A DNA stretch of 60,850 bases from Bacteroidia bacterium (GCA_049318585.1 JBMOGB010000001.1:1-60850); one strand, 5' to 3'; shown: positions 7,872-36,565, counted from the stretch's first letter. The notes: generated by a model from the sequence alone, not told the origin. Program-made: numbers and translations.

Positions 7872-8129
7872 ATGGAAAACAATTATAAAGATGATAGCTA
7901 TTTGAATGATTTCAAACCATTGGAAGTTGAAGTAACAGGAAGACTAGAAGACGCAATACATAGATTCCGATCTTTAGTTACTAAAGAAAAAGTAATGTCA
8001 TATTTGAAGCTACATTATTCTTACGAGAAGCCATCAGATAGAAAACGACGCAAAATCCGAGAATCAATTCAGAGACAAAAGAAAGCAACTTTAGACGCAA
8101 AGAAATATGGGCTTGAACAAAAAGTTTGA
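7872..8129 (+). CDS. rpsU: Ribosomal protein bS21
   Basis: LEDAIHRFRSLV.KE.V....K....YEKPSDRKRRK is the bS21 signature; SD AGGAG. Confidence 0.85.
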   Translation: MENNYKDDSYLNDFKPLEVEVTGRLEDAIHRFRSLVTKEKVMSYLKLHYSYEKPSDRKRRKIRESIQRQKKATLDAKKYGLEQKV

Positions 8130-8706
8130 AGTAGTTGACTTGGGACTTAAAGTGCCAGAAGAATTCCATCCAGAATGGTATAGACAAGGATATGTCCCTA
8201 TTAATGTTGAATTAAATAATAAAGAACCCATAAATGAGGCAAAAATGTTAAACAGACAAGGCTATAAAGCAATAAGTATTGAAGATGAAAGTGAAATACC
8301 GAAAATAAAAGAAGCTTTGCAAATGCAACCGAATAAAGAATCGCAATGGTATGACAATTTAGCAGAAGGTGGCGAGGTTGTTGATAATAATGATTCTATT
8401 GATATTGATAGTTTGCAAAAACATAAAATTTCTTTAAAAGAAATAAAGCCAAATGATAAGGAAATGGCACCCTCAGATTTAACAACAATACGAAGCAAAC
8501 TTCTTCAAAAAAGAAAAGTTGAAGATAAGGCTAGGGTGGCTTCTCCTGGTGAATTTGTCGTTTGGTTTTGTGAAAAAGTTGTTCATGTTGGAAACTTAAA
8601 TGCAACTAAAGAAATATGTGAAAAACTAATTGTTGAAAATGAAGATATTCAAGATGATGATTTGATGATCTTTTTAAGAATTCCTGTTGCTAAACTTTTC
8701 AAATGA
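8107..8706 (+). CDS. Hypothetical protein
   Basis: 199-aa ORF within the co-oriented operon. Confidence 0.7.
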   Translation: MGLNKKFEVVDLGLKVPEEFHPEWYRQGYVPINVELNNKEPINEAKMLNRQGYKAISIEDESEIPKIKEALQMQPNKESQWYDNLAEGGEVVDNNDSIDIDSLQKHKISLKEIKPNDKEMAPSDLTTIRSKLLQKRKVEDKARVASPGEFVVWFCEKVVHVGNLNATKEICEKLIVENEDIQDDDLMIFLRIPVAKLFK

Positions 8707-9359
8707 TTGAGGACGAAATGCCTGATAGAAAAGCTTCAGATATTTTACTTGAATTAGAAGAAAAAATTAATAATCTTGAAAAAAATATGAAGAATATTGA
8801 AAATATTTTGCAATTGCAATCATTTCAATTTAAATTAATTATAGATAACTTAAATAAATTATCTAAACAAAATCAACAAGCAAATGAACTGATAGCTCCA
8901 GTATCTTCAGCTTCTTCAACAATGTCTGCAGTATCTGGAGCTGAGTCATTAATTGAAAGAAAAAATAGGTTAATGAGCACACATGCTTCAAGTTTGTTAC
9001 CAAAAGAGCTTAGTTTAAAGCAGCCGCCATCTGAAAATGCTAATAATCAGGTATTTGTAGATGGAGGAAAGAGAGTACCAATAACACAAAAAATAGTTTT
9101 ATTTGATGGTAATCCTTTACCAGCAGCGCGTGTCATTATAAAAAATGAAAAAAATGAGCAAATAAAAACTATCGAAACAAATAATACTGGCAGATGGCAG
9201 ACCGCATTGCCTCCAGGTAAATATTCAATAAATGTTTTTGGTAAATATATGGGTGGTGCTATTTTAGAATTTGATCAATCATTTGAAGTACCAGATATAA
9301 GCTCAACATTAGAACTCCCTCAACCTCAAGTATATAAAAGAAAGCCAATAAAACAATAG
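8703..9359 (+). CDS. Coiled-coil plus carboxypeptidase-regulatory/CnaB-like beta-sandwich protein (start may be 8718)
   Basis: N-terminal heptads; GNPLPAARVII...TNNTGRW...LPPGKYSI. Confidence 0.65.
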   Translation: MIEDEMPDRKASDILLELEEKINNLEKNMKNIENILQLQSFQFKLIIDNLNKLSKQNQQANELIAPVSSASSTMSAVSGAESLIERKNRLMSTHASSLLPKELSLKQPPSENANNQVFVDGGKRVPITQKIVLFDGNPLPAARVIIKNEKNEQIKTIETNNTGRWQTALPPGKYSINVFGKYMGGAILEFDQSFEVPDISSTLELPQPQVYKRKPIKQ

Positions 9360-9365
9360 GATTAC

Positions 9366-9674
9366 ATGACAATTAGTGGGTGCTTATCAACTATAAAGAG
9401 TTTGGTTCATCATAATGACCAAAACAACGAGCAGAAAATGACTGATGAATGTTTAATGTTTAAAATGAATGACTTATTGAGAGATAAACTTATTGATTTG
9501 TTTTTTGGAAATGAAGAAGTATTCAACCACAAAATTAATTTATCAAAATTTTCTTTTGAATATGAAGATGGAAGTCATAAAGTAATTAACTTAAATCTGC
9601 CATTCGATGTAAAAGAATATATTAGGAAATGTACCAATAGAGATAATATAACAATAAATGTGAAATTATGTTAA
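9366..9674 (+). CDS. Hypothetical protein
   Basis: SD AGGA, 102 aa. Confidence 0.6.
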   Translation: MTISGCLSTIKSLVHHNDQNNEQKMTDECLMFKMNDLLRDKLIDLFFGNEEVFNHKINLSKFSFEYEDGSHKVINLNLPFDVKEYIRKCTNRDNITINVKLC

Positions 9675-9959
9675 TGTAACAACAGTTTTTCCTTCAACCG
9701 CTTCTACTTTAAATTTTTCTTTTACTTTATTAATTATAATATTTTTTAATTCATCAAAAGTTCCATCCCACCAGTTTGGAGCTTTTGTCATTAAATTTAT
9801 TCTTTGAATTGCTTTCTTTGCTTCTGATAGTTTATTTATTGGAAATCTATCTATATTTGAATTATTTTTTTCGTGCTCTGCTTGTATACAAGCAATCCCT
9901 CTTTTTTTTGAAGTCGTTGCTAATTTATAAAATATTTGGCAGGCAGATACGATTTTCAT
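9666..9959 (-). CDS. Hypothetical protein
   Basis: TAATG-coupled to 9959..10402 on the minus strand; DRFPIN...AKKAI.RI. Confidence 0.65.
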   Translation of the reverse strand: MKIVSACQIFYKLATTSKKRGIACIQAEHEKNNSNIDRFPINKLSEAKKAIQRINLMTKAPNWWDGTFDELKNIIINKVKEKFKVEAVEGKTVVTLT

Positions 9960-10402
9960 TATTCGTCCTCGTCAGCCTCGTCAGCCTCCTCGTCCTCTTC
10001 ATCGTCATCGTCCTCTTCGTCTTCATCGTCCTCGTCCTCGTCATCTTCGTCGTCATCGTCCTCTTCATCGTCCTCGTCATCTTCATCTTCAAAGTTTGTT
10101 TCATGTTCTAATGCTTCATCGATATTTCCTTCATCTTCTTCATCTTCGTCGTCAACATCTATACCTTTTTGTTTCATATACTCAATATCTTCTTTTGTGA
10201 ATAAAGAATTAAGCTCATTGAGACCGACTTCATTAAAACCATCTGGGTTTTGATCTATTCCGAAAGCAATATCGTCTTCATCATCTTCATTATATTCATC
10301 ATCTTCTAAATCTGCTTTTTTATCTATTAGCAATGCAGACTTTTTATATAATGAAAGTATATAATTATAATTTTGTTTTTTTGCTGTTTCCTTGGTACGC
10401 AT
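9959..10402 (-). CDS. Highly acidic protein with Asp/Glu tract
   Basis: SD AGGAG upstream on the minus strand; the C-terminal ~45 residues are nearly all D/E. Confidence 0.75.
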   Translation of the reverse strand: MRTKETAKKQNYNYILSLYKKSALLIDKKADLEDDEYNEDDEDDIAFGIDQNPDGFNEVGLNELNSLFTKEDIEYMKQKGIDVDDEDEEDEGNIDEALEHETNFEDEDDEDDEEDDDDEDDEDEDDEDEEDDDDEEDEEADEADEDE

Positions 10403-10540
10403 ACAACTCCTATGTTTATATGTACTATATTTGATAGTTTATTTTTATGATAAAAGAATATAATATTTGCAAATCATTTAAACTGTAAAGCATAAATCTT
10501 TGGGAAATAATATTGACACCATAACAAAGGATAAACAAAC

Positions 10541-10975
10541 ATGATTACAGCGGATATTAATGTAAAAAAAATGTCAGAAAATGCAGTTTTGCCAGAATAT
10601 AAAACTAGTGGGGCGAGTGGTATGGATGTCTGTTCTATAAATAATGAGACATTATATCCTGGAGAAGTAAAAGCTATAGATACTGGTTTAGCATTTAATA
10701 TTCCAGAAGGTTTTGAAATTCAAGTAAGACCTCGTTCTGGTTTGGCTTTTAAGAATAGAATAACAGTATTAAATACTCCAGGGACAATAGATTCTGATTA
10801 CACTGGCAATTTAAAAATTATTTTAATAAATCATGGCGAAACATTTTTTATAAATAAAGGAGATAGAATTGCTCAAATAGTAGTTGCTCCAGTTGCAAAA
10901 GCAACTTTGCATTTAGTAACTGAATTAGAAACAACGGTTAGAGGGTCTGGAGGATTTGGTTCAACAGGAGTTTAA
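10541..10975 (+). CDS. dut: dUTPase (trimeric)
   Basis: All five motifs: SGMD, RPRSGLA, PGTIDSDYTG, GDRIAQ, RGSGGFGSTG. Confidence 0.97.
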   Translation: MITADINVKKMSENAVLPEYKTSGASGMDVCSINNETLYPGEVKAIDTGLAFNIPEGFEIQVRPRSGLAFKNRITVLNTPGTIDSDYTGNLKIILINHGETFFINKGDRIAQIVVAPVAKATLHLVTELETTVRGSGGFGSTGV

Positions 10976-11994
10976 TGGACAATAAGTTTAAAATCACAAT
11001 TGCGGTAGTAATGATATGTCTTTTTGCTGTAATGGGTTATACTATAAAGCAACAAAATGATATAATTAAAGCATTAAGTGCTAATGCAGAGCAGCAGAGG
11101 TTTTTAAAAGATGATATTACAGCTGTAAAATCTACTTTATTAACTAGTGCAGACTTAGATAAAAAATTAGCATCTGTAAATATGGACCTTGAAACTTTAA
11201 AAAAAGATCTTAATAAAACTGGTTCAGATGTTTCAGCAATTTTGATTGTTACAAATAAAACTCCAGGGTCAGATAAAAAAGGACAACCAAGTACTGGTTA
11301 CTATCCAATACCAGCAGAGAACCCATCAAAAGATCCTGTAACCCCATCTGGTCCAATAGCTTCTACCTGTGGTCCTGATTGCGCCACAGACACATACGGC
11401 TATTATAATAAAGTTCCTTATTATAGATTATCAGAATCATTGGGAAGTTTATCAGTTCCACTTGGCGAAGTTTCGTTTAATATGAGAGAAGCTAACCCTT
11501 GGAACGAAAAAGTATATGGACGTACATATTCAAGTTCTGTTGTTATTGCAACTGATGCCGCTGGAGTAAAAACCGCATATGCAAAAATGACAATACAACC
11601 AAATGACGGATCAAATAAAACTTATAGCTTACCAGAGACGCAAGTCCAATTTTATGAAAGATTGCCAGAATCTAAATTTTATTTATTAAATCTTAGAGCC
11701 TCTTTTGGTCTAGATCTTGGCTATTCATCAAAACCAGGATTTGTATACGGACCTACTGCTCAAATATTTATATCATCTTATGGTAAGTATAAACATAAGC
11801 CTGATTGGTATATTGCCGGATTGGGAATAAATTATGATATAAATAATTCTGATTATAACTTTGCCTTATCACCATTTGCATATAAAATAACTGGAGATGA
11901 TTCAATGTTTCAAAACATAAATATTGGACCTACCATTGCCATTGACTTGCATGGAAATATTTCTGGGTTTATTGGATTTAAACTATCTCTATAA
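10975..11994 (+). CDS. Membrane-anchored protein: N-terminal TM, coiled coil, beta-rich C-terminus
   Basis: ITIAVVMICLFAVMGYTI hydrophobic helix; amphipathic beta strands ending GFIGFKLSL. Confidence 0.6.
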   Translation: MDNKFKITIAVVMICLFAVMGYTIKQQNDIIKALSANAEQQRFLKDDITAVKSTLLTSADLDKKLASVNMDLETLKKDLNKTGSDVSAILIVTNKTPGSDKKGQPSTGYYPIPAENPSKDPVTPSGPIASTCGPDCATDTYGYYNKVPYYRLSESLGSLSVPLGEVSFNMREANPWNEKVYGRTYSSSVVIATDAAGVKTAYAKMTIQPNDGSNKTYSLPETQVQFYERLPESKFYLLNLRASFGLDLGYSSKPGFVYGPTAQIFISSYGKYKHKPDWYIAGLGINYDINNSDYNFALSPFAYKITGDDSMFQNINIGPTIAIDLHGNISGFIGFKLSL

Positions 11995-12029
11995 TAACTC
12001 TGATATATATTAACTAAAATTAGGACAAA

Positions 12030-12281
12030 ATGCATTGCGAAAATTGTTCAAAGCTAGCTTTTTTTCAAAAACATCATGGGTGTATTAACTGCCCAAGATT
12101 TTGTGCTTATCAAGAAGAAAAATTTTGTAATTATTGCTCTTCTACAAAAAATATTTGCTCTGCTTGTGGGAAATCAATTAAACCAAAAGAAATAATCCAA
12201 CAAGATGCAAGCAACCAAATAGATATAGTTCATCCGTTCTATAAGCCTGGACCTTGTAGAAGCTGTGGAGGAAGATCTTGA
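12030..12281 (+). CDS. Small Cys-rich zinc-binding protein
   Basis: Five CxxC pairs in 83 aa; SD AGGA. Confidence 0.7.
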   Translation: MHCENCSKLAFFQKHHGCINCPRFCAYQEEKFCNYCSSTKNICSACGKSIKPKEIIQQDASNQIDIVHPFYKPGPCRSCGGRS

Positions 12282-12811
12282 TAATTACAGACATAGATAA
12301 ACTTAAAATAAAATCAGAGCTTGTAAAAGAAAATGAAGTAGTTGATATTGTCTCTGCTTTGGATCTTGAACTGGAAGAAATGAATAAGTTTGGGCTTAGT
12401 GGTGTTGGTTTAGCAGCTTCTCAAATTGGCATTTATAAACAAGCAGCTATAATAAGAATTAATAATTTTAAAATTAATTTAATTAATTGTTCTATATCTG
12501 AAGGCTTTGATTTACAACCTTCAAAAGAAGGGTGCTTGTCTATACCTGGACAGACGTGTATAGTTAATAGATGTAATGAAATAATAATTAGAGATAATAT
12601 TCTAGGAAATATAAATAATTTTGTTGCATATGGTTTAGTTGCAGTATGTATTCAACATGAGATAGACCATTTTTTTGGGGTCTTAATGACAGATAAAATA
12701 GTAAAAGCCGAATTTAACTCGGTTGGTGATAATATGCCATGCCCATGTAATAGTGGTCTAAAATATAAAAAGTGTTGTAAAAAAAACAAATTACAAGTGA
12801 GGAAAACATGA
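12278..12811 (+). CDS. def: Peptide deformylase with C-terminal SEC-C motif
   Basis: GVGLAASQIG, EGCLS, QHEIDH; C-terminal CPCNSGLKYKKCC; TTG start overlapping upstream TGA, SD GGAGG. Confidence 0.93.
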   Translation: MIITDIDKLKIKSELVKENEVVDIVSALDLELEEMNKFGLSGVGLAASQIGIYKQAAIIRINNFKINLINCSISEGFDLQPSKEGCLSIPGQTCIVNRCNEIIIRDNILGNINNFVAYGLVAVCIQHEIDHFFGVLMTDKIVKAEFNSVGDNMPCPCNSGLKYKKCCKKNKLQVRKT

Positions 12812-13059: not shown

Positions 13060-13074
13060 GCACATTTTTTTAGA

Positions 13075-13377
13075 ATGATAAATGTAACTAGTGAAAGTGA
13101 ATTAAAATTAAATGGTTTGTCGATTATAAAATTTTATATTGATAATTGCGTTCCATGTAAAAGGTTGGATACGATTTTAGATAAAATGGAAAATGAATTT
13201 AAAGTAAATATCTATTCCGCCAAAATAGATGATTTTATAGTTTTTGCAAGAAAACACCAAATAAAAAGTGCTCCAACGCTTTTATTTCTTAGCGAGACTA
13301 AAGAAGTAAACAGAATGGTTGGCTTGGTTAAAACAGAAACATATCGAGATGCTTTCAAGAAATTTTTAAACAAGTGA
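13075..13377 (+). CDS. trxA: Thioredoxin
   Basis: IIKFYIDNCVPCK active site and IKSAPTL cis-Pro loop. Confidence 0.85.
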   Translation: MINVTSESELKLNGLSIIKFYIDNCVPCKRLDTILDKMENEFKVNIYSAKIDDFIVFARKHQIKSAPTLLFLSETKEVNRMVGLVKTETYRDAFKKFLNK

Positions 13378-13410
13378 AAGCTTGATATATATGAAACAAA
13401 GGAGAAAGTT

Positions 13411-15648: not shown

Positions 15649-15649
15649 T

Positions 15650-22209: not shown

Positions 22210-22780
22210 ATCTAATCTTATTGCAATAAGTGGCAAACTTAGACATGGAAAAGATACTTTTGCAAATATTATTGTGGAAGAATTAAATAATTTAAATTTT
22301 AATAAAGAAATTTATAAAACCGCCTTTGCTGATCAAGTAAAAGAAACTTTGCTATCAATGTGCCCAACTCTTGATAGAAAACATGTTTTTGGTCCAAGCG
22401 AATTTAGAGATATTATTTTACCAAACTGCATTGATAAAATTACTGGGAAGCCATTAACAATAAGAAATGCTTTGATTCAAATAGGAGCCATGGGAAGAGA
22501 ATGGAATAAAGATTTTTGGGCTATGGCTGTTCTTAATAAACTTCAAAATAATAAACTTATGATAATTACAGATTGTAGATATTTAAATGAAAAAGAAAGC
22601 ATAGAAATGTGTGGAGGAAAAGTAATTAGAATAATTAGGCAATTAGATAACAACTGTGCTTTAAATCATCTATCTGAAACAGATTTGGATAACGCAAATT
22701 TTGACGATTATGTTATAAATGATACAATCGATAATTTACATAAACAAGCAATTAAGATGATAAACAAATATATCTTGTAA
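22202..22780 (+). CDS. Deoxynucleoside monophosphate kinase
   Basis: ISGKLRHGKDT, FAD, IRNALIQIG, ITDCRYLNE, HLSE. Confidence 0.85.
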   Translation: MNKSNLIAISGKLRHGKDTFANIIVEELNNLNFNKEIYKTAFADQVKETLLSMCPTLDRKHVFGPSEFRDIILPNCIDKITGKPLTIRNALIQIGAMGREWNKDFWAMAVLNKLQNNKLMIITDCRYLNEKESIEMCGGKVIRIIRQLDNNCALNHLSETDLDNANFDDYVINDTIDNLHKQAIKMINKYIL

Positions 22781-23700
22781 TGAAAACCTGTTCAAAATGC
22801 AAACATAAAAAAAATATAGATCAATTTATTGGAAATATTCCAAACAAAATTACAAGTCAATGTAAAAAATGTAGAGATATTAAAAGATTTAATAATATTA
22901 AAAATAAAACAACTATAGTAAATTATAGAATTAAAAACAAAGAACATAATTTGCAAAAATGCAAAGAATATTATGGAAAGAACAAAGAAAAGATTTTAAT
23001 AAGAACAAAAGATTATCAAGAAAACAATAAAGAACAAATAATTATTAAAAACAAAGCCCACAAAATTCAAAATAAAGAATTATATTTGTGGAGATTTGCA
23101 AAAAGAAGAGCAAAAGAAAAGAATATATTATTTAACCTTAATGTTGAAGACATTTTAATTCCAGAAATTGATCCATATTTAGAATACCCTTTATATAGAG
23201 ATGGAAAAGTTTCAGAAAATATTCCATCTATAGATAGAATAAATAATAATTTAGGATACATCAAAACAAATATTATAGTGGTTAGTCAAAAAGCAAATCG
23301 CATAAAAAATAATTTGTCATTGGCTGAAATAAAATTAATTGCAAAAAATTATGATAATATTGGAATTGAATCTGAAAAATCATATTATAAAAATAATATA
23401 TTAATTGAAGCAAGAAAAAGATCTAAAAAATTAAATTTAGATTTCAATTTAGAATTAGATGATATTATAGTTCCAGATGAATGCCCCCTACTTAACATTA
23501 AATTATTTACAGGAAGCAATAAGCCAATAGCTAATTCTCCAACATTAGATCGCATAGATAATAATTTGGGATATATTAAAGGAAATGTTAGAGTAATTTC
23601 TTTAAAATCAAATATATCTAAATCAAATTCTACCAAAGAAGAATATCTTTTATTTGCAAAAAATTTAGAAAATATAGTGAATAATAGATATTATATGTAA
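22780..23700 (+). CDS. HNH-like (His-Me finger) homing endonuclease with two tandem domains
   Basis: CSKC/CKKC N-terminus; PSIDRINNNLGYIKTN..ANRIK and PTLDRIDNNLGYIKGN..SNISK. Confidence 0.75.
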   Translation: MKTCSKCKHKKNIDQFIGNIPNKITSQCKKCRDIKRFNNIKNKTTIVNYRIKNKEHNLQKCKEYYGKNKEKILIRTKDYQENNKEQIIIKNKAHKIQNKELYLWRFAKRRAKEKNILFNLNVEDILIPEIDPYLEYPLYRDGKVSENIPSIDRINNNLGYIKTNIIVVSQKANRIKNNLSLAEIKLIAKNYDNIGIESEKSYYKNNILIEARKRSKKLNLDFNLELDDIIVPDECPLLNIKLFTGSNKPIANSPTLDRIDNNLGYIKGNVRVISLKSNISKSNSTKEEYLLFAKNLENIVNNRYYM

Positions 23701-25555: not shown

Positions 25556-26821
25556 ATGCCGATTTTAGAAACTGTAAGAATAGACGACTGCAAAAATGAA
25601 GTATTGTTTTCTTATAACAAGGAGAAAGTTGCAAGTATTATAGATAGTGTAGCAAGGGATATTGGCAAACATCATAAAATAAAAGGCAGCAGACAAGGCA
25701 AGGCTTCTATTGAGGCTGTAAAAATTGCAGCTAAAAAGGCTGTGCTAGAGAATGCTGGGCAACAATTATTGAATGATGCCTTTCAAGATATTCTATTTGA
25801 AACTAAATGGAAGCCATTTTCTCAGCCAGAAGTAAAAGATATGAATGTTACATTTGGATCATTTAGCGCAAAATTAACTATTGGATATTCCCCTGAGTTT
25901 GAGTTAACAAAATATAAGGATTTTGAATTTGCTCAACCAGAAAATTCTCCTAATAATGAAGCCTTATTTGATAAATTGTCGCAGAATATATGCAAGAATT
26001 TTGCCGAAACAAAATTATTTACAGAAAATGATTTTGTTCTTGCTGGTGATAAGGTAATAGTAGATTTTCATGCAACAATTAATGGTGAAGATTTTGAACA
26101 TAATAAAGCTAGCGCAATAACCGTAGAAGTTGGGAAAGGAAAAACAGTAGATGGCTTTGAAGACAATTTAATTGGAATGCGCGTTGGCGAGGAAAGAGAA
26201 TTTGATTTATCATTCAATGAAAATTTTCCAAACAAAACTTTTGCCGGAAAGATTATTCATTTCAAAGTTAATGTTGTTAATGCCGCCAGGGATGAGCCAG
26301 CAACATTTGATGAAGAATTAGCGAAGAAAATGAATTTTGATTCATTAGATTTATTAAAAGAAGATGTGATGAATCAAGCGGCTCAATATAAAAAAGAAAT
26401 GGAATTTGGAAGCTTAAAGGTTACAGCGATTAATAACTTGATTGAATCAAATAATGTGCCAGTTCCAGAATGGATGATTTTGCAAACAAGTGAAAATACC
26501 GCAAAGATGCAACATAAAAACTTTGCATCATTATCCAACGATGAAAAGAAAGTTTTGTTTGATGAAACAAAAAGAAATATTTCCTTGGCATTTATTATTG
26601 AAGAAGTAAAAGGGCTGGAAGCAGAGACGGTTTTAACGCAAGATGAACTTTCAAGAATTTTGCATGAAAATATTTCAAAGATGCCAGAAAATATGCAAGC
26701 GGAATTGGTTAATGGAAAAAATTATGCTTTATATTCGAAGATTTTGAATGATATTCAAATAGAATATGTCATCAAGTGGGTTGTGGATCATTCTACAGTT
26801 GTAGCAAAAGGAGTTGAATAA
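25556..26821 (+). CDS. tig: Trigger factor
   Basis: Three-domain length (421 aa); KGSRQGK loop; FKBP domain GDKVIVDF...GFEDNLIGMRVGEEREF...AGK..HFKV; VPEWMI. Confidence 0.88.
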   Translation: MPILETVRIDDCKNEVLFSYNKEKVASIIDSVARDIGKHHKIKGSRQGKASIEAVKIAAKKAVLENAGQQLLNDAFQDILFETKWKPFSQPEVKDMNVTFGSFSAKLTIGYSPEFELTKYKDFEFAQPENSPNNEALFDKLSQNICKNFAETKLFTENDFVLAGDKVIVDFHATINGEDFEHNKASAITVEVGKGKTVDGFEDNLIGMRVGEEREFDLSFNENFPNKTFAGKIIHFKVNVVNAARDEPATFDEELAKKMNFDSLDLLKEDVMNQAAQYKKEMEFGSLKVTAINNLIESNNVPVPEWMILQTSENTAKMQHKNFASLSNDEKKVLFDETKRNISLAFIIEEVKGLEAETVLTQDELSRILHENISKMPENMQAELVNGKNYALYSKILNDIQIEYVIKWVVDHSTVVAKGVE

Positions 26822-27406: not shown

Positions 27407-27450
27407 TCAAAAGTTCAAACTTCCTTGTGAATTTGAATGGAGAAAAACAA

Positions 27451-30400
27451 ATGTCTAGATACATATCGTTACATAATCATACTATATTTTCTATTATGAA
27501 TTCTATTATAAAGCCATCTGATTTGTTTAAAAGAGCGGCTGAATTAGAAATGCCAGCAGTTGGCATAACTGATAATTTTACAATGGCTGGCATTTATGAT
27601 TCATATAAAGCTTATAAATCAACTAAGGTAAAATTAATTGCCGGTTGCCAATTCAACTTTGTTGATACAACAAAGCCTTATCTTGATTACAACCAAGATA
27701 ATAAATTAAGCAAACCAAAAGAAAAACTAAAGAATATAGTTCTTATAGCTAAAAATGATATAGGCTATAAAAACATTCTACTTCTTAATAGAAAAAGCTT
27801 TGATTGTAAATTTGGCAAAATGCCACTTATTGATTGGAATAATTTACAAGAATATAGTGAAGGCGTTATTTGTTTAACTGGAGATGCTTGTGGTATATTA
27901 GGTACAAATATAAGCTCTGGAAACATTGATAAAGCAAGGCAAGACGCTTCTAAATTAAAAGAAATTTTTTCAGATAATTTAGGCTTAGAATTTGTTCCTA
28001 ATAATTTGAAGTATAATGAATGCGATCAATTTGCAACAAATAGAAATTTATTAAAGATATCACAAGACCTTAGTATAAAGCCAGTAGCTGCTAGCAATGC
28101 AATGTATTTATATAAAGAGCAACATAAAGTACATGATTTACTATTAGCAATTAAAAATGGCAGGAGTTTGTCTGATAGCTCAAGACCAAGATTTGAATTT
28201 GAGCAATTATATCTACATACTGATCAAGAAATAATAAAATTCTTTTCAAGAAATTTTGGGGAAGAATTTGCAAATATATTATGCGATAATTCTTTATATT
28301 TTGCTGGCATGTGCGAAAAACCAAACTGGGTAAAACCAGAAGTTGTTACTGGAGATAAAGCTCAATTACCCACATTTCCAATAAAAGACTCAGATGATTA
28401 TGACCAATTTAATAATTGGCTACCAAATATTGATGATAATATTAAAAATCTTGATACCGACCAATTATATATGCGCTTTAAATGTGAAAAAAATTGGGCT
28501 AAATATGTGCCACAAGATAAAAATGATATTTATAAGAAAAGACTAAGCGATGAATTATCAGTTTTTGAAAGTTTAGGATTTTCTTCTTATATGTTAATTA
28601 CTGCAGACTTTATAGAATGGGCTAGAAATAACAATATTCCAGTTGGACCAGGACGAGGTTGTTTAACAAAAGACACTCTTGTTTTAACAGAAAATGGATT
28701 TAAAAATTTAGATGAAATTAATATTGGAGACAAAGTTTATTCCCATTCTGGGAAAATTCAAAATGTAATTAATAAATTTGAATTTAATATTGAAGATGAA
28801 AAACTACTAAAATTAAAAATTGAAAATTCATTTGGAGATATTGTTTTAACAAAAGACCATAAAATTTATGGATGTAAAAAAATAATTGAGAAAGTAGAAA
28901 AAGATTATAATTATGGCAACAAAATAATACATGAAAAACATGATAAAATAAAGTTTACAGACCCAACTTGGATTAAAGCTAAAGATTTAAATATTGGAGA
29001 TTATATTTATTCAGCGTTTCCAGAAAGAAATGCATATAAATATGACTATATATTTGATTTGGCTAATTTCTGTAATGAAAAAGATGTAGTTGGAGATAAA
29101 ATAATAATACGGAATAAAATTGTAAATGAATTTTCAATAAGAGATGTTTCTAGGAAAACAAATATATCATTTGAAATAGTTCGTAAAATTAAAAATAATA
29201 TTATAGTTAATAAAAAATATGTTGAGGAAGTAACAGCGTATTTATTAAGTAATAACTTAAGTCTAGATAATTGGATTAATATTCCAAAATATAATATTAC
29301 CTATATTAATAGATTTATTCCTTTAGATAATGATTTTTTGTATTTGCTTGGTTTATGGATAGGGGATGGTTGTATAAGATATAAACAAAAAAATGGCATA
29401 AATTATTCTTTCAATATAAATGAAGAAGATTCTATAAATGCAGTATATTCATTTTATAATAAATTAGGTTTTAATTTAACAAAAAGAACAAATGGAGTGA
29501 ACGGATGCTGTTTTGATATTGGGACAACAATACTTTCAAATTTGTTCAAACATATATTCCCGTTCTATAAGAACGAATCTAAAACTAAACATTTGCCATC
29601 TTTTTTTAGAAAATTAAATGATGATCAGCTTTTATGCTTGGTAAAAGGAATAATAGATAGTGATGGGCATGTAGATGGAAATAATGAATCAATTAAAACA
29701 ATAAGTTATCAGTTGGCAAAAGAATTAAAAGAAGTATTTAATAAATTGCATATTGTATGCGGAATATTAGTTTCAAAAGCTGAGACTTTACATGGAAGAA
29801 ACAATTCTAAATGTTATCAAGTTAGGTTCTCCGGCATAAATACACCACTTAAAATAAAATCTATTTTTGGTAATGGCTATTATAGTAAAATAATAGATAT
29901 TAAAGAATGTAATGACAATAAAGTATATGATATAACAGTAGAGAATGATAATTCTTATCTTACATCGTCTGGCGTTGTTCATAATAGTGTTGGTGGTAGT
30001 TTAATTGGATATCTGCTTGGAATCCACAGAGCGGATCCAATTAAATATGGACTAATCTTTGAACGCTTTCTTAATATGGAGAAAAAAGCTTATCCAGACA
30101 TTGATAACGATTTTGATTCAGAAGGAAGAGAAAAAGTTCTTGATTATGTAACAAATAAGTATGGCAAAGATTATGTTGCTCATGTAAGTAACTTTATTAC
30201 ATTTACTCCCAAAGTAGCCATTACGGACATAATTACAAGTTTAGAAATTGGTGGGTCCAGGAAAGATGCGTTTAGAATTGCTAAGAATATAACTGAAACA
30301 ATAGACGCTGGATCAAAGAATTTAAAAGATGCAATTAATAGTTCCAAATTACTTGCTGAGTTTGTAAAAGAGCATCCAGAAATTATAGAATATGGAGAGC

Positions 30401-32244
30401 CTTTACTTGGAACAATTAGAAGTTGGGCAACGCATGCCGCTGGAGTTGTAATTGGTAAATATGAATTACCAGGTTTAGTACCGTTAAGATTAGATGATAG
30501 TGGGGTTGTTGTTCTTGAATGGGAGAAAGAAAGAACAGAAGAAAATGGATTGGTAAAGATCGACTTTCTTGGTCTTGAAACTTTGAATATAATCAAAACT
30601 ACAAACCAAATAATCTATGATATTAATAGCATAGAAGCTCCAAAAGAAATAGATTTTGATCTTGAATATAAAGAAGTATATGATTTAATTACAAATGGAA
30701 AAACTCTAGGGGTATTCCAGCTTGGGGCTTCTGGCGGAACAATTGGGCTTTGCAATATGACAGAACCAAAAAATATAGAAGATATTGCTGTTATTAACGC
30801 TTTAACAAGACCTGGAGTTCCAAATGATATTAAAATGTCATACATAGATAGAAAATTTGGAAGAGAGAAAGTAGTAATACCGCATTCAAATCTTGAAAGA
30901 GCGGTAAAAGCAACATTGGGTTATTGCATTTTTGAAGAATCATTCATGTTTTTAGCGCATGATTTTTGCGGATGGGACTTGCAAAAATCTGATAAAATGA
31001 GGAAAATATCTAAATTAAAAGCAAAAGGAAAACAAATTTTAAAGGAGCTTGAGGAAGAATTTGGAACTAGTGCTGTTAATCATTCTCATGTTAAGCCGGA
31101 ATTTGCTAAAAAAATATGGGACGAATGGGTTATTCCACTTTCTGGATATGCTTTTAATAAATCACATTCTTTATTATATTCAATGACTTCATTGCATACT
31201 GCTTATTTAAAAGCTTATTATAATAATGAATTTTTAACGGCTAATTTAATTTCAGAATCTAAAAGCAATTCTCCAACTGCTAAAGATAATATATTAAAAA
31301 TTCGTCATGAACTTAGGAAATGTGGAGTTAAAATATATTCTCCAGATATTAATAAATCATATGATACATATAGGCTTATAAACAAAAATTCTTTAATTAC
31401 TGGAATTTCTTCTTTGCATGGAATAAAGTCTCCTCCAGCAGAGAATATAATGCTTAATAGACCGTTTAGTAGCTTTGAAGATTTTCTTATTAGAACAGAT
31501 AGTTCAAAAGTAAGATCTCCAGTAATTCAAGCACTTGCCGCTTGTGGCGCTTTGGATAGTTTTAATTTACCAAGAAAGACAATGTATTTGTATTGTAGCG
31601 ATTTAAGATCAAAATATAAAGCATGGAATATAAAAAATCCAGGGAAGAAATTTGAATATACATTACCAAAAGATGAATGGAATATTGGAGAAATGAGAGC
31701 AATGGAAGTTCATTATCTTGGCGAAGCATTTTCTGGAACAAAACAAGATTCATTTCCGAAGTTATTTTCTGGACATAATGCTGTATCAAGCATAAAAGAT
31801 TTAACAAGCAAACCAGAAAAAACGCAAGTAGTAATTGAAGGTGAAGTAATAGATATGTTTACTTTCAAGGTAAAAAAACAAGATAGCAAAATATTTGGGC
31901 AAGAATGTTGCAAAATATTAATTGAAGACCTTAGTGGTCATCAAATTAGTATGGTATTTTTCCCTGATAGCTTTAGAAAGTTTCAACATTTATTTGATGA
32001 TACTTTGGGCAACAGTAAATTTGAAAAAGGATTTGGAATAAGAGTGTCTGGACAAACAAGTAAATTTGGGAATGAAACATCCATTATAGGATCTGATATA
32101 TACGGGCTATTTGCGCCTATAGATAAGCCATCAGATTTAGACCCTAAAAAAATCGAGCTTTCAATTACAAGGAATAAAAAAGTAAAAGAAATTACAAATG
32201 AAGACATTATTGATGAATTATCATTAATAATATCTTCTAATTAG
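27451..32244 (+). CDS. dnaE: DNA polymerase III alpha subunit, intein-containing
   Basis: PHP LHNHT.FS, GPGRG/SVGGS, FERFLN, PDIDNDF, HAAG, KIDFLGL, GVFQL, YAFNKSHS, C-terminal OB fold; ATG 27451 after GGAG. Confidence 0.97.
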   Translation: MSRYISLHNHTIFSIMNSIIKPSDLFKRAAELEMPAVGITDNFTMAGIYDSYKAYKSTKVKLIAGCQFNFVDTTKPYLDYNQDNKLSKPKEKLKNIVLIAKNDIGYKNILLLNRKSFDCKFGKMPLIDWNNLQEYSEGVICLTGDACGILGTNISSGNIDKARQDASKLKEIFSDNLGLEFVPNNLKYNECDQFATNRNLLKISQDLSIKPVAASNAMYLYKEQHKVHDLLLAIKNGRSLSDSSRPRFEFEQLYLHTDQEIIKFFSRNFGEEFANILCDNSLYFAGMCEKPNWVKPEVVTGDKAQLPTFPIKDSDDYDQFNNWLPNIDDNIKNLDTDQLYMRFKCEKNWAKYVPQDKNDIYKKRLSDELSVFESLGFSSYMLITADFIEWARNNNIPVGPGRGCLTKDTLVLTENGFKNLDEINIGDKVYSHSGKIQNVINKFEFNIEDEKLLKLKIENSFGDIVLTKDHKIYGCKKIIEKVEKDYNYGNKIIHEKHDKIKFTDPTWIKAKDLNIGDYIYSAFPERNAYKYDYIFDLANFCNEKDVVGDKIIIRNKIVNEFSIRDVSRKTNISFEIVRKIKNNIIVNKKYVEEVTAYLLSNNLSLDNWINIPKYNITYINRFIPLDNDFLYLLGLWIGDGCIRYKQKNGINYSFNINEEDSINAVYSFYNKLGFNLTKRTNGVNGCCFDIGTTILSNLFKHIFPFYKNESKTKHLPSFFRKLNDDQLLCLVKGIIDSDGHVDGNNESIKTISYQLAKELKEVFNKLHIVCGILVSKAETLHGRNNSKCYQVRFSGINTPLKIKSIFGNGYYSKIIDIKECNDNKVYDITVENDNSYLTSSGVVHNSVGGSLIGYLLGIHRADPIKYGLIFERFLNMEKKAYPDIDNDFDSEGREKVLDYVTNKYGKDYVAHVSNFITFTPKVAITDIITSLEIGGSRKDAFRIAKNITETIDAGSKNLKDAINSSKLLAEFVKEHPEIIEYGEPLLGTIRSWATHAAGVVIGKYELPGLVPLRLDDSGVVVLEWEKERTEENGLVKIDFLGLETLNIIKTTNQIIYDINSIEAPKEIDFDLEYKEVYDLITNGKTLGVFQLGASGGTIGLCNMTEPKNIEDIAVINALTRPGVPNDIKMSYIDRKFGREKVVIPHSNLERAVKATLGYCIFEESFMFLAHDFCGWDLQKSDKMRKISKLKAKGKQILKELEEEFGTSAVNHSHVKPEFAKKIWDEWVIPLSGYAFNKSHSLLYSMTSLHTAYLKAYYNNEFLTANLISESKSNSPTAKDNILKIRHELRKCGVKIYSPDINKSYDTYRLINKNSLITGISSLHGIKSPPAENIMLNRPFSSFEDFLIRTDSSKVRSPVIQALAACGALDSFNLPRKTMYLYCSDLRSKYKAWNIKNPGKKFEYTLPKDEWNIGEMRAMEVHYLGEAFSGTKQDSFPKLFSGHNAVSSIKDLTSKPEKTQVVIEGEVIDMFTFKVKKQDSKIFGQECCKILIEDLSGHQISMVFFPDSFRKFQHLFDDTLGNSKFEKGFGIRVSGQTSKFGNETSIIGSDIYGLFAPIDKPSDLDPKKIELSITRNKKVKEITNEDIIDELSLIISSN
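28660..29985 (+). mobile_element. Intein (442 aa) with LAGLIDADG homing endonuclease
   Basis: Starts CLTKDTLV after PGRG; block B LTKDHKI; LLGLWIGDG and VKGIIDSDG; ends VYDITVE...VVHN followed by Ser. Confidence 0.95.
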
Positions 32245-32281
32245 AGTTATATATATAATATATTATTTCAAAGGAGGAAAT

Positions 32282-32962: not shown

Positions 32963-32964
32963 AA

Positions 32965-33306
32965 ATGTTTAGAGTAATAGATAATAAAAAAGTAGATATG
33001 ACAAATGAGGAATATAATGATTATATAAGAATTTGTAAATCATATGATAGACCTCACTTCAAAGGCGAAGAATTATTTAAAGATTTATTTGAAACGAATG
33101 AAACTGGTAAAATTATATATATAAAAAGTTTAAATAATAGGCAATTTACTTTTGAAGTAATATTTTTCATCATGAATTTAATGCAAAATCAATGGCTTAG
33201 AGTAATGACAGAAACAGTAGCTGATTTTATGAAAGTTTCATCAAAAAGAATTGATGAAAAAATATTAGAACTTGATAAAATAATTGAAATGAATAAGAAA
33301 CAATAA
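32965..33306 (+). CDS. Hypothetical protein
   Basis: 113-aa co-oriented ORF. Confidence 0.7.
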   Translation: MFRVIDNKKVDMTNEEYNDYIRICKSYDRPHFKGEELFKDLFETNETGKIIYIKSLNNRQFTFEVIFFIMNLMQNQWLRVMTETVADFMKVSSKRIDEKILELDKIIEMNKKQ

Positions 33307-33308
33307 TT

Positions 33309-33345
33309 AAGTCAATCATAACCACACACATACACATACACACAC
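33309..33345 (+). repeat. CA-rich leader (aagtc..ataaccacacacatacacatacacacac), second copy at 18083-18108
   Basis: Read directly; C-rich in an AT-rich background. Confidence 0.7.
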
Positions 33346-33855
33346 ATGGATAAAGAAAATACAGAAAAATTTATGAAAACAATAGACGATTTTGGATTAT
33401 CATCAGTAGACAATGAAAAATTTTCAAATGATTTAAAAGAATTAAATGATATATCAAATTCATTGCCTAAAGATAATGTTTATTCAAGCGAAGATTGTTT
33501 AAGATTAGAACGATTATGCCTACGAGGGATGAATATATGCGATTATTGGACTCCTATTATACATATTGTTCTTTCTGAAAAAGAAGCTGAAAGAGATGCC
33601 ACTAGAGGCAACGCATATATACACGCTGGAAAAGAAGGCTCAAAAATAACTGTTGAAATGAGAAAGGCATTAGCGGACACTAATATTACCTATAATAATA
33701 TAAGAGTTATAACTGAAAAGATAAAAGGAATTAAGTTATTTTTTGATAAAAAAAGAGACACGTTAAAATCTGCAATATTTGTTTTTAGAGATCAAATAGT
33801 TGCATATAAACTATCTGATAAAGGCATTGAAGGCGAAAACATGGAGAATTGGTAA
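33346..33855 (+). CDS. Helical protein, possibly UvsY-like recombination mediator
   Basis: All-helical pattern KITVEMRKALAD; located near the SSB and RecA genes. Confidence 0.4.
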   Translation: MDKENTEKFMKTIDDFGLSSVDNEKFSNDLKELNDISNSLPKDNVYSSEDCLRLERLCLRGMNICDYWTPIIHIVLSEKEAERDATRGNAYIHAGKEGSKITVEMRKALADTNITYNNIRVITEKIKGIKLFFDKKRDTLKSAIFVFRDQIVAYKLSDKGIEGENMENW

Positions 33856-34130
33856 TAATTATGGACAATATAGATAGAGTTAAACCATTTTATAAAGTAA
33901 CAGTAAAAGTAAAGAATAAACATAAAGCCTTTTGGGTAAATGTTTTAGAATTAGCTTCTTCCTTTATTCATCTTAAAGGAGCTGAAATTGAAGAAACCAG
34001 CAATGCTGGGACACTAGAAGAAGCTAAAGCCTTGTTAGAGACAAATAACCAAGTGGAAAAATACTATCCTTGGGACTCGGTAGTTGAAATAGATTTGAAA
34101 AGATTTCTAAAGTCAACACAAACGCAGTAG
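33849..34130 (+). CDS. Hypothetical protein (start may be 33861)
   Basis: Co-oriented ORF. Confidence 0.6.
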   Translation: MVIIMDNIDRVKPFYKVTVKVKNKHKAFWVNVLELASSFIHLKGAEIEETSNAGTLEEAKALLETNNQVEKYYPWDSVVEIDLKRFLKSTQTQ

Positions 34131-34188
34131 AATAGACTACTGATTGTAACTCGATAAGCCAATAACAATCATAATAAAGGAGATTAAA

Positions 34189-34893
34189 ATGGCAAAATAT
34201 GGAGAAGTAGATTGGGATGATAACTTGGCGTCAGATAAAAGAAACAATAAATTTGATAGAGATAAGATGTTGCTTCTACAAGACGGAATGACAGCAGTAA
34301 GAGTTCTTATGGAGAAACCGTTTAGATATTTCTTTCACAAAGTAAAGTTTGAGAATGATGCTAATTCATTCGGAAGAAATGTTAGGTGTTCAACAGATAG
34401 TTGCCCTCTATGTGCGAAAGGAGACCAACAGAAGGTTAAGTATTTAGTTGGAGTAGTTGTCCGTAAAACAAAAGAACTAAAATACTTTGAATTTGGTACT
34501 GGTATTTATAATGGTATCAATACTATTAGAAGTAATATGGAAGGTTTCAGAAATGTTATTGAATACGATTTGAATATTGTGCGTAATTCTAAAGGAACGC
34601 CAGCTAACTTTTATAGTGTTCTTCCTGGAAGAATGAGTCCACTATCAGCAGATGAAGTTGCTATGGCAGAGTCAATTGATAAAGATTGGATGGTAGATTA
34701 TTGTAAACCAATTTCGCCAGAAGAAGTAACGAATACTATGGAACGTATTTCTAGGTGGATTGATAAGAACAATAAGCCAACAGAAGACCAAGATGCCGCT
34801 GCTAGAGCTAAACAAAAGAAGTCACAGAGCGATGACGATGATACAGTATCAATTAATGATACAGCTCTAACATTCAAAGTATTAAAGAAATAG
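34189..34893 (+). CDS. Single-stranded DNA-binding protein, gp32-like
   Basis: VRVL...F..H, C....CPLC zinc site, YDL.I.R...YSV, acidic tail; SD AAGGAG. Confidence 0.65.
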   Translation: MAKYGEVDWDDNLASDKRNNKFDRDKMLLLQDGMTAVRVLMEKPFRYFFHKVKFENDANSFGRNVRCSTDSCPLCAKGDQQKVKYLVGVVVRKTKELKYFEFGTGIYNGINTIRSNMEGFRNVIEYDLNIVRNSKGTPANFYSVLPGRMSPLSADEVAMAESIDKDWMVDYCKPISPEEVTNTMERISRWIDKNNKPTEDQDAAARAKQKKSQSDDDDTVSINDTALTFKVLKK

Positions 34894-34915
34894 TTATATA
34901 ATCCTTAAGAATCAT

Positions 34916-34946
34916 AACAAGGGAGGTTTGCCTCCCTTGTTTACTT
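34916..34946 (+). terminator. Rho-independent terminator-like hairpin
   Basis: aacaagggagg-tttg-cctcccttgtt, perfect 11-bp stem followed by tacttt. Confidence 0.75.
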
Positions 34947-34956
34947 TAAGGAACAC

Positions 34957-35574
34957 ATGCGATTAATTGTTGGGCTTGATATAAGCACATCTACTATTGG
35001 TTGGGCTGGTTTATTTGTTGAGAACAAGCAAATAAAAAATGTAGTATATGGATATTACAAACCATTAAAAAATAAAGATGATAAAATAAATTTTCTGTTA
35101 CAAACAAAAAAAGATATTCTTAACTTAATAAAAAATCTTATTATTAAAGATCAAATTATTGATGATATAAAAATTTGTGTTGAAGATATTTTATTATTTA
35201 CAAAAAATACCACAGCAACAACAGTTACTTCTTTAGCCGCTATAAATAGAGTGTTGTGCGTTTCTTTATATGAAGATTATAACAACGTATCTCTTTTACC
35301 AGTTCAAACAATAAGAGCCAAATTAAGAAGAGTAGTTAATAGTGAAATTACTATATCAAAAGAATTAGTACCAGAAACTGTTGAAAAAATTATAAAAAAA
35401 TATGATAGCAATTGGGCGTTTGAATACCAATTGAATAAAAAAGGCAAGATGATAATAGAAAATTATGATAAAGCTGATGGTATTGCTGTAGCTTTATCAT
35501 TTGCTTATATAAATAATTATTTGGAGGACTCTAATGACAAGAAACGAAGCGGAAAAACTACTAGGACTAAGTAG
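34957..35574 (+). CDS. ruvC: RuvC-like Holliday junction resolvase
   Basis: IVGLDISTSTIGW, CVED, DKADGIAVA RNase H-fold acidic motifs. Confidence 0.75.
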   Translation: MRLIVGLDISTSTIGWAGLFVENKQIKNVVYGYYKPLKNKDDKINFLLQTKKDILNLIKNLIIKDQIIDDIKICVEDILLFTKNTTATTVTSLAAINRVLCVSLYEDYNNVSLLPVQTIRAKLRRVVNSEITISKELVPETVEKIIKKYDSNWAFEYQLNKKGKMIIENYDKADGIAVALSFAYINNYLEDSNDKKRSGKTTRTK

Positions 35575-36565
35575 TGATTATAATGATGAGGCTTTAAAAA
35601 AAGCATTTAAAAAATTGGCATTAGAATATCATCCAGATAGAAATAAAGATCCTGGCGCTGAAAGTAAATTTAAAGAAATAAATCAAGCATTTCAAATTTT
35701 AACTGGTAAAGATAAGCCTGAAGATGAAATGTTGAATAATTATTCAAGCAATGGAGTTATTGAAGATTTATTTTCAGGGTTTGCTGCTAACTTTTTTGGT
35801 GGACACAATGTAAATTTTAGACAAAATAAGCAACATCAAATTATGTTAGAAGATATAGAACTACCAGTAAAAGTATCATTTGAAGAATCTGTTCTTGGAT
35901 GTGTAAAAAAACTACCATATAATTTAAAGCATATATGTGATAAATGTGAGGGGCACAAAATTGATCTTTTAAAAAGAAATACTTGTCCAGATTGCCATGG
36001 TAAAGGAATAACTCATAAAACAATTGGAGGAAATAATTTTTTCAGAGTTGAACAGGCTACTTGTATAAAATGTTTAGGCACTGGTATGTTAGGTGAAAAA
36101 TGTTTACATTGTAATGGAATGGGTTTTTTATCAGAAAATGCAAGTATAAATGTAAAAATACCACCTACTGGAGACAAACGAGTAAGAATCCTTGCAAAAG
36201 AAAAAGGCAATAAATTTAAAAATTTTGCAAGTTCATTGATTATAAATGTAGAACCAACAATTGAAGGGACTGGAAAATATGAAGGCTATTATATAGATGG
36301 TAAACATGTAAAATCTTCAATAAGCGTTGAGCTTGACGTTTTATTGTTTGGCGGAAAATATATTATAGCTACAGTTGATGGAAAAGAATCAGAAATAGTA
36401 ATACCACCAATGACAAAAATTTTAGATGAAATATTTATACAAGATAAAGGAGTTGTTGACAATAAACCTGGTAAACATATAGTTATGATAGATGTAGTAT
36501 ATCCAAATAAAGAAAAAATTGGAGAAGAATTAAAAATTGCATTACAAAATGCTTATAAAGAATAA
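35534..36565 (+). CDS. dnaJ: DnaJ chaperone
   Basis: J domain with HPD, G/F region, four CxxCxG repeats, C-terminal domain. Confidence 0.92.
   Translation: MTRNEAEKLLGLSSDYNDEALKKAFKKLALEYHPDRNKDPGAESKFKEINQAFQILTGKDKPEDEMLNNYSSNGVIEDLFSGFAANFFGGHNVNFRQNKQHQIMLEDIELPVKVSFEESVLGCVKKLPYNLKHICDKCEGHKIDLLKRNTCPDCHGKGITHKTIGGNNFFRVEQATCIKCLGTGMLGEKCLHCNGMGFLSENASINVKIPPTGDKRVRILAKEKGNKFKNFASSLIINVEPTIEGTGKYEGYYIDGKHVKSSISVELDVLLFGGKYIIATVDGKESEIVIPPMTKILDEIFIQDKGVVDNKPGKHIVMIDVVYPNKEKIGEELKIALQNAYKE

Follow-up and report, generated by a model that had tools for sequence, protein, structure and literature searches.

Does a large phage carry its own set of factors for starting, trimming and folding nascent proteins on the ribosomes of its host? 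The question is raised by a stretch of DNA of 60,850 nucleotides (the window), which constitutes bases 1–60,850 of the 171,750-bp contig C1, the longest contig of a metagenome bin classified as a Bacteroidia bacterium (GCA_049318585.1). A preliminary description of the window had noted genes for ribosomal protein bS21, peptide deformylase (PDF) with a SEC-C domain, thioredoxin, trigger factor and DnaJ on a contig with terminase and portal genes, and had proposed that the phage supplies an initiation-to-folding path of its own. Pfam searches found all five genes intact, and the terminase and portal assignments were borne out by PHROGs matches (Table 1). Taking the evidence together, we consider it reasonably probable that the window comes from the genome of a huge lytic-type phage in a clade distantly related to Bacillus phage G, that this clade has long carried diverged, intact genes for bS21, PDF-SEC-C, a type I methionine aminopeptidase (MetAP), trigger factor and a class-A DnaJ, and that during infection their products would supplement or replace the host copies on host ribosomes.

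Contig C1 is a fragment of a large phage and not of a cellular genome, because its gene content is that of a phage and the nearest cultured relative of its portal protein is the portal of Bacillus phage G (31.8% identity, E 1e-70). PHROGs and Pfam searches identified a terminase large subunit, the portal, many homing endonucleases, a DnaE-type DNA polymerase III alpha subunit (Pol III alpha) with an intein, SbcCD, RecA, primase, topoisomerase, ribonucleotide reductase (RNR), ThyX, DnaB, a TubZ-like tubulin and a block of sugar-nucleotide and glycosyltransferase genes. The remainder of the contig, outside the window, is phage-like throughout. The contig has 29.4% G+C, a coding density of about 96% with 179 open reading frames (ORFs) of at least 50 aa in a simple ORF call, and no terminal overlap; ARAGORN found no tRNA genes on its 172 kb, and near-complete relatives are 349–481 kb long. 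The bin itself comprises 4.9 Mb in 649 contigs and is 84.7% complete and 6.8% contaminated.

Table 1. Positions of the features discussed and the matches that identify them; unprefixed positions lie in the window, and those prefixed C1 lie outside it on the same contig.
Feature	Position	Strand	Product	Match
bS21 homologue	7872-8129	+	85 aa	PF01165, 39.7 bits (cut-off 27)
PDF with C-terminal SEC-C (SecA-type) zinc-knuckle tail	12278-12811	+	177 aa, TTG start	PF01327, 88.5 bits (cut-off 22.8); PF02810, 26.3 (cut-off 20.4)
Trigger factor, full length	25556-26821	+	421 aa; N-terminal ribosome-binding domain, FKBP domain, C-terminal arms	Trigger_N 65.2, FKBP_C 47.9 bits
DnaJ, class-A type	35534-36565	+	343 aa	J domain 63.7, CXXCXGXG 33.7, DnaJ_C 48.8 bits
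MetAP, type I	C1:137857-138639	-		TIGR00500, 219.3 (cut-off 171.35)
Thioredoxin	13075-13377	+	100 aa, CVPC active site	PF00085, 44.5 bits
Terminase large subunit	51024-52958	+		PF05876; phrog_675, E 6.8e-56
Portal protein	54362-56191	+		phrog_16240, E 3.2e-47
Pol III alpha (DnaE type), intein with LAGLIDADG endonuclease inside	27427-32244	+		Pfam; Intein_splicing, residues 445-853
J-domain-only protein	C1:70527-70865 (L003:10527-10865)		112 aa, HPD present	Pfam
RNR	C1:143560-145950			
Homing-endonuclease-type gene	22780-23700			Pfam, PHROGs
Homing-endonuclease-type gene	36537-37493			Pfam, PHROGs
Homing-endonuclease-type gene	39745-40881	-		Pfam, PHROGs
Homing-endonuclease-type gene	48438-49457	-		Pfam, PHROGs
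Homing-endonuclease-type gene	52959-54359	-		Pfam, PHROGs
CCA-adding/poly(A)-polymerase-type nucleotidyltransferase	47219-47953			
CCA-adding/poly(A)-polymerase-type nucleotidyltransferase	C1:93569-94804			
TubZ/PhuZ-like tubulin	C1:155617-156915	-		
GDP-mannose 4,6-dehydratase	C1:158832-160823	-	663 aa	Pfam, two stretches
IF3 of related contig G123	G123:63847-64389 (L146:3847-4389)			
rpsU of the bin	C253 (L047:1474-1700)	-		

The preliminary description had allowed for a patchwork of independent acquisitions that never occur together in relatives. We instead found the genes together. Four IMG/VR contigs were compared with C1 gene by gene, three of them (G119, G120 and G121) from a portal search that gave 8 loci and the fourth (G123) from a search with PDF. 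G123 (115.6 kb, 27.9% G+C), whose portal is 47% identical, is collinear with C1:917-65762 and carries bS21, PDF-SEC-C, thioredoxin, trigger factor and DnaJ in the same order and with their motifs kept, including the adjacency of thioredoxin and PDF; its DnaJ is 31.6% identical to that of the window. The 336-kb G119 starts inside Pol III alpha, so that the part in which bS21, PDF and trigger factor would be expected is unassembled, and its syntenic DnaJ and MetAP are 32% and 38.6% identical to the C1 copies. The 42-kb G120 starts inside trigger factor, and both there and in G123 this gene is followed, in conserved order, by a small ORF and Pol III alpha; in the window Pol III alpha comes after two small ORFs downstream of trigger factor. 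The 52.5-kb G121 starts downstream of the DnaJ region and is uninformative on the set. G123 also has genes for IF3 and two ClpP proteins that are not in the window at the matching place. The full IF3 gene lies directly upstream of, and overlaps, the G123 PDF gene. A cysteine-rich ORF of 83 aa in the window (12030-12281) was considered as a possible remnant of IF3 and rejected, as it has no similarity to the G123 protein (E 0.75).

Co-occurrence was then counted more widely in a census, for which IMG/VR was scanned with an alignment of 29 PDF-SEC-C proteins. The best 80 of 429 relatives included 22 loci whose contigs measure 100 kb or more, and 21 of these records were examined with domain models. 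Trigger_N was found in 13 of the 21, S21 in 14, DnaJ_C in 13 and Peptidase_M24 (MetAP) in 6. Trigger factor, bS21 and DnaJ occurred together in the same 13 PDF-selected records, which are those with the 13 best PDF matches. MetAP was present in exactly those six of the 13 that are at least 81% complete (349–481 kb, one with terminal repeats), the seven without it being fragments that are 24–62% complete. In the remaining eight, whose PDFs are more distant, there was no trigger factor, DnaJ_C or M24 match and a single S21 match. Gene order was as in the window, with bS21, PDF, trigger factor and DnaJ followed by MetAP far downstream. The identity and intactness of the genes are thus accompanied by conservation, synteny and co-occurrence in relatives, and in these PDF-selected records the set is stably linked within one huge-phage clade and is no patchwork. 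One related IMG/VR record, G439 (176 kb), has a trigger factor match at C1:78161-78499 and a DnaJ_C match at C1:60696-61062, both in its own numbering, each with one in-frame TAA; decay, assembly errors or a stop codon that is read differently could account for these.

The PDF is distinguished by its tail. The catalytic motifs GVGLAASQ, EGCLS and HEIDH were read in the translation, followed by a CPC...CC tail, and the catalytic residues as well as C155, C157 and C166 were invariant in 29 aligned relatives. Among the 120 best PDF relatives, EGC[LI]S and HExxH were kept in 106, and a regular expression found the C-terminal CxC...C[CH] knuckle in 64, several more having a longer spacer. An AlphaFold2 model of the protein (pLDDT 90.6) gave 1ws0 as its top Foldseek hit (target-normalised TM-score 0.82, rmsd 2.2 Å over 149 columns). 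The model also shares the common PDF core fold with the phage enzymes of cyanophage S-SSM7 (3uwa, target-normalised TM-score 0.83) and Vibrio phage VP16T (5mtc, 0.77), but those chains consist of 137–154 residues and lack a SEC-C tail. The first named cellular PDFs in the search, from Sporohalobacter, Margulisiibacteriota and Bacillota at about E 1e-14, were also without a SEC-C domain. E. coli PDF docks on the ribosome through a C-terminal helix, whereas the window PDF ends in a zinc knuckle. The SEC-C tail may replace the helical tether and would probably hold the enzyme near the exit tunnel. The metal-binding domain of SecA is described as binding SecB and ribosomes in the abstract of bioRxiv 10.1101/613315.

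Trigger factor passes the equivalog cut-off of TIGR00115 (205.6 versus 180.2). Its AlphaFold2 model (pLDDT 90.0) matched solved trigger factors in Foldseek (1w26, E 2.3e-22; 2vrh, 1.7e-20; 3gty, 4.5e-20) over 429–433 columns; the TM-score reached only about 0.5, which is unsurprising in a flexible protein of several domains. The canonical ribosome-binding loop of trigger factor is GFRxGxxP. In the phage protein, G44, R46, G48 and A50 of this loop (pattern G44-x-R46-x-G48-K-A50) were invariant in 10 relatives, and a GFRxGKA loop was found in some clade members and in G123. Metagenomic relatives comprised one protein at 99% identity, seven at 46–58% and one at 34%, with the next at no more than 29%; a HMMER scan gave 92 cluster representatives at E ≤1e-30, and PHROGs holds an unannotated matching family (phrog_26774, E 5.5e-32). 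IMG/VR yielded no close relatives when searched with the single protein or with alignment A1, and phage relatives were reached through portal and PDF instead. At E 1e-20, none of 118 other members of the bin's family gave a match to the phage-type trigger factor, and a pattern scan of GTDB species representatives with alignment A1 returned only cellular trigger factors, 21–30% identical to that of the window, and no other phage-type copy. We did not use 27 INPHARED matches, all below 30% identity, most of which are on short or unannotated records that resemble bacterial carry-over.

A gene tree against bacterial homologues was run for trigger factor. This quick maximum-likelihood tree, which is unrooted, contained 87 rows: the window, 17 clade members, the G123 copy, the partial G120 copy, 33 representatives (every second full-length one, P0058-P0129, without known source), 33 cellular sequences (every second trigger factor of 400–520 aa that the patterns found in the contig scan) and the bin's own protein. 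The 53 rows that include the window, G123 and G120 were separated from the 34 cellular rows with an SH-aLRT value of 100. This separation fits a single old acquisition with fast divergence afterwards, the window protein being only 23–25% identical to those of G120 and G123.

The DnaJ homologue contains an HPD motif, a short G/F stretch, four CxxCxGxG repeats and the C-terminal domains, and it matches the unannotated family phrog_14336 (E 3.9e-45). The MetAP gene is intact, and the metal ligand pattern D/D/H/E/E was read in the C1 copy and in its G119 orthologue. PDF, MetAP and trigger factor are the bacterial co-translational maturation factors at the ribosomal exit, according to the part of a review available to us (PMC8185961), and MetAP completes this trio in the phage. 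The phage proteins belong to the same families as the bacterial ones, with the same catalytic motifs and folds and a ribosome-loop motif matched in part, but they are virus-encoded and very diverged. A cold-shock protein is also encoded on C1 outside the window. Neither ClpP nor an initiation factor was found on C1, a partial genome. When the bin was searched with the phage proteins by tblastn, DnaJ was 24% and MetAP 30% identical to bin sequences, and trigger factor, PDF, bS21 and thioredoxin gave no match at 1e-3; the bin has its own trigger factor on C34 and its own bS21 on C253. By these comparisons the phage genes are not recent host copies.

The bS21 homologue passes NCBIfam model TIGR00030 narrowly (30.8 versus 28.95) and has an acidic and aromatic N-terminal extension of about 22 aa and a basic C-terminal part. 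It has 17 metagenomic relatives at 56–82% identity, and its best PDB matches are the Firmicutes-type proteins of Lactococcus, Bacillus and Staphylococcus; identity to the bin's bS21 is 23% (E 1.3). The accessible part of Jha et al. (2021; PMC7797042) gives Tyr54 with a weakly basic C-terminal part as the signature of the Bacteroidetes bS21 that occludes the anti-Shine-Dalgarno (ASD) segment. In alignment A4, which consists of short, diverged sequences, the bin's bS21 has tyrosine in this column, whereas the phage-type proteins have glutamine or serine in 15 of 15 cases, and the C-terminal part of all 15 is strongly basic (Arg/Lys-rich). The phage bS21 carries neither feature of the ASD-occluding type. 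Upstream of the bin's rpsU there is an extended Shine-Dalgarno (SD) sequence, GAAGGGAGGTG, a few bases before the likely ATG; together with Tyr54 in its product, this agrees with the autoregulation of bS21 that Jha et al. (2021) and McNutt et al. (2023) describe in the Flavobacteriia, in which the ASD sequence is concealed on the ribosome. The bin also contains SusD homologues.

Signals upstream of genes differed between the phage and the bin. SD-like 4-mers were counted at −20 to −4 of ATG-started ORFs of at least 100 aa, with −60 to −43 as the control. On C1 they preceded 86 of 158 genes, as opposed to 15 of 158 in the control (5-mers, 34 versus 2). On bin contigs C2-C39 the counts were 55 of 878 versus 98 of 878 (5-mers, 9 versus 13), and hence there was no enrichment. 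The enrichment seen on C1 was also present in G119, G120 and G121. Likewise, TATAAT occurred upstream of C1 genes at 5.9 per kb versus 1.8 in coding sequence and the Bacteroidota-type TAnnTTTG was not enriched there, whereas the bin showed the reverse, with TAnnTTTG enriched and TATAAT not. Two points are new here: the phage and its relatives use SD sites and the co-binned Bacteroidota genome does not, and the phage bS21 appears to lack the Bacteroidota-type tyrosine that locks away the ASD sequence.

From these data we propose a scheme for infection. Phage bS21 would enter the 30S platform and bias initiation towards SD-led phage mRNAs. Nascent phage chains would lose their formyl group to PDF, which its SEC-C tail probably keeps close to the exit tunnel, and their methionine to MetAP; trigger factor would shield these chains by way of its conserved ribosome-binding loop, and DnaJ would hand clients to host DnaK. 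Ribosome binding, preference for phage proteins and cooperation between the factors are predictions of this scheme from the sequences.

Several findings weigh against such a ribosome-directed set. The genes are dispersed among replication genes, with no operon and no obvious co-transcription. PDF, DnaJ and thioredoxin fall below the equivalog cut-offs of their NCBIfam models (87.9 versus 103.95 for TIGR00079, 181.9 versus 377.2 for TIGR02349 and 53.3 versus 96.8 for TIGR01068, respectively), so that all three are diverged members and DnaJ is by the NCBI rule not an equivalog. The Trigger_C score of trigger factor (22.4) is just below the Pfam cut-off of 22.7, and its loop, GSRQGKAS, lacks the Phe and Pro of the canonical motif. 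The window trigger factor is only 23–25% identical to the G120 and G123 copies, as compared with 34–43% for flanking genes. No gene for Hsp70 (DnaK), GrpE or GroEL was found on the partial genome represented by C1, and for this reason the phage DnaJ would have to use host Hsp70. The census sample was picked by one member of the set and is biased, showing linkage within one clade and no frequency among phages. Bacillus phage G (NC_023719), the closest cultured relative by portal, was searched with Trigger_N, PDF, J domain and S21 and matched none of them. What remains of the initiation-to-folding path that had been proposed is an intact, phage-borne and co-inherited set of ribosome-proximal factors. 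It is not a contiguous module: the genes stand singly, distributed across 29 kb between genes for topoisomerase, dUTPase, SbcCD, Pol III alpha, SSB and RecA. The membership of thioredoxin is doubtful.

The same scattering of single genes among unrelated ones would suit spare parts without a pathway, each gene keeping up one labile or limiting host factor after host shut-off with no specialisation or cooperation, which we regard as fairly unlikely. Other genes of this kind are added or missing in relatives, as is seen from IF3 and the two ClpP genes of G123 and from G120, which encodes trigger factor yet lacks DnaJ at the syntenic place. In the accessible part of Al-Shayeb et al. (2020; PMC7162821), a maintenance role is proposed for phage PDF and elongation factors. 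However, the phage proteins show 24–30% identity or no detectable similarity to the bin copies, a divergence that a copy kept for dosage would not need. The genes keep their order and continue to occur together even where the portals of the genomes are only about 47–54% identical, and features of the lineage, the SEC-C tail and the N-terminal extension of bS21, are conserved.

The contrast in SD usage can be read in two ways: the phage may infect a host that uses SD sites, its contig having entered the bin through composition alone, or it may infect one of the Bacteroidota and bring an SD-permissive bS21. The latter can be extended to a mechanism that we consider unlikely. A Bacteroidota host would hide its ASD sequence under bS21, bS18 and bS6; the basic phage bS21 without Tyr54 would replace host bS21, free the ASD sequence and favour SD-led phage mRNAs over SD-less host mRNAs, after which PDF-SEC-C, MetAP, trigger factor and DnaJ would handle the surge of phage nascent chains. 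Freshwater and lake metagenomes belonging to two or more studies contain a large share of the sampled words of this DNA, and none of the runs listed for it was an RNA run; the habitat makes a Bacteroidota host plausible, yet it is no evidence for one. CRISPR spacers gave no support for a host, as the one exact match of 24 nt (C333) lies in ordinary sequence. The GDP-fucose synthase does not discriminate between host phyla, with a best identity of 62% to Bacillota-side genomes (13 of 151 matched at 1e-40) and 60% to Bacteroidota (82 of 151 at 1e-20). The 3′ end of the 16S gene is unassembled in the bin, and no host flank resembling the bin was found on G119. Among the phages of Chen et al. (2022; PMC9723584), for which Bacteroidetes hosts are predicted, one DnaJ entry in the part of the supplement at hand has a Firmicutes best hit (Brevibacillus), so that Firmicutes-like chaperone genes are no strong argument against a Bacteroidota host.

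We give little credence to the possibility that the chaperones serve assembly or replication, with DnaJ and host DnaK remodelling replication complexes, trigger factor and the J-domain-only protein aiding capsid or tail assembly, and thioredoxin feeding RNR. In phage lambda, DnaJ acts with host DnaK to remodel replication complexes. The window DnaJ gene lies between an SSB-like gene and RecA and primase genes and could serve replication, trigger factor adjoins Pol III alpha, and the gene for the J-domain-only protein, which begins ...KAIRKIA..., is in the structural region. This position in the early or middle block of the phage is, however, weak evidence of function; the G, R, G and A positions of the trigger factor loop are invariant, and we know of no role for PDF, MetAP or bS21 away from the ribosome. 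For thioredoxin, nucleotide metabolism is the better assignment. The protein matches phrog_22 (thioredoxin domain), which PHROGs places under nucleotide metabolism, and because C1 also encodes RNR, thioredoxin more plausibly feeds the phage RNR and is probably not a member of the set. Finally, the suggestion that C1 is cellular or chimeric, with five ordinary bacterial housekeeping genes, is refuted: although C1 was binned with a bacterial genome of similar G+C content (29.4% versus 31.1%), it combines terminase, portal, homing endonucleases and a TubZ-like tubulin on one contig with a 96% coding density, is collinear with IMG/VR viral contigs, and differs from the bin both in SD and promoter signals and in trigger factor, DnaJ, MetAP and bS21, of which the bin has its own, quite different copies on other contigs.

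Parts of the set have been reported before. Huge uncultured phages that, like the one on C1, carry bS21 and PDF, together with many other translation genes, are described by Al-Shayeb et al. (2020; PMC7162821), where such genes are taken to redirect host translation; supplementary file 4 of that paper also names a Judaphage clade, whose genomes measure 375–438 kb. Among the huge-phage annotations in the portion of supplementary file 4 at hand, 'trigger factor' appears at least 23 times, 'methionine aminopeptidase' at least 19 times and 'DnaJ' at least 102 times, and among the entries listed in the supplements 'SEC-C' appears 0 times; the main text, as far as available, contains no mention of trigger factor, DnaJ, chaperones or methionine aminopeptidase. 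The occurrence of trigger factor, MetAP and DnaJ in huge phages is thus, to judge by these entries, already listed, and trigger factor is less unfamiliar in phages than the preliminary description had supposed. Literature searches did not turn up a paper dealing with phage trigger factor or with the PDF–MetAP pair of jumbo phages.

There is also a likeness to the freshwater huge phages of Chen et al. (2022; PMC9723584), which have genomes of 293–331 kb with 31–34% G+C and carry bS21, chaperones and many sugar/LPS genes. In the accessible text these authors put forward a substitution of phage bS21 into the ribosomes of the host and note chaperones together with Clp protease; in the part of the supplement at hand, DnaJ appears 62 times and 'trigger factor' 0 times, and the FKBP entries are of the fkpB type. 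Their bS21 genes lie on the reverse strand inside the structural block, and the proteins are Bacteroidetes-like, with an aromatic residue at the position of Tyr54 in 61 of 61 cases according to the same part. The window bS21 gene, in contrast, is on the forward strand about 43 kb upstream of terminase, and its product is unlike the bin's bS21, with Gln or Ser in the Tyr54 column of all 15 phage-type sequences.

A few features of C1 lie outside the set. Its window has at least five free-standing homing-endonuclease-type genes, of HNH/EndoVII-like, LAGLIDADG and DUF4379/CapR zinc-ribbon array types; one of these is on the opposite strand between terminase and portal, and another directly follows DnaJ. 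Two CCA-adding/poly(A)-polymerase-type nucleotidyltransferases are encoded on this contig, on which ARAGORN found no tRNA gene. The Pfam model of GDP-mannose 4,6-dehydratase was matched in two stretches, which suggests a large insertion, possibly another intein. The TubZ/PhuZ-like tubulin is 42.5% identical to its copy on G119.

If these proteins do act on host ribosomes, the virus would control the first minute of a protein's life, from the choice of mRNA through trimming of the N-terminus to the first folding. Such control would exceed the initiation and tRNA functions that are usually discussed for huge phages. Three features most deserve attention: the PDF with its zinc tail, the full trio of exit-tunnel factors, and the contrast of phage and bin in bS21 type and SD usage. 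The zinc-tailed deformylase is a natural experiment in the docking of exit-tunnel factors. The combination of an SD-rich phage, an SD-poor putative host and a bS21 without the occluding tyrosine provides a directly testable idea, one that could explain why bS21 is the ribosomal protein most often carried by phages.

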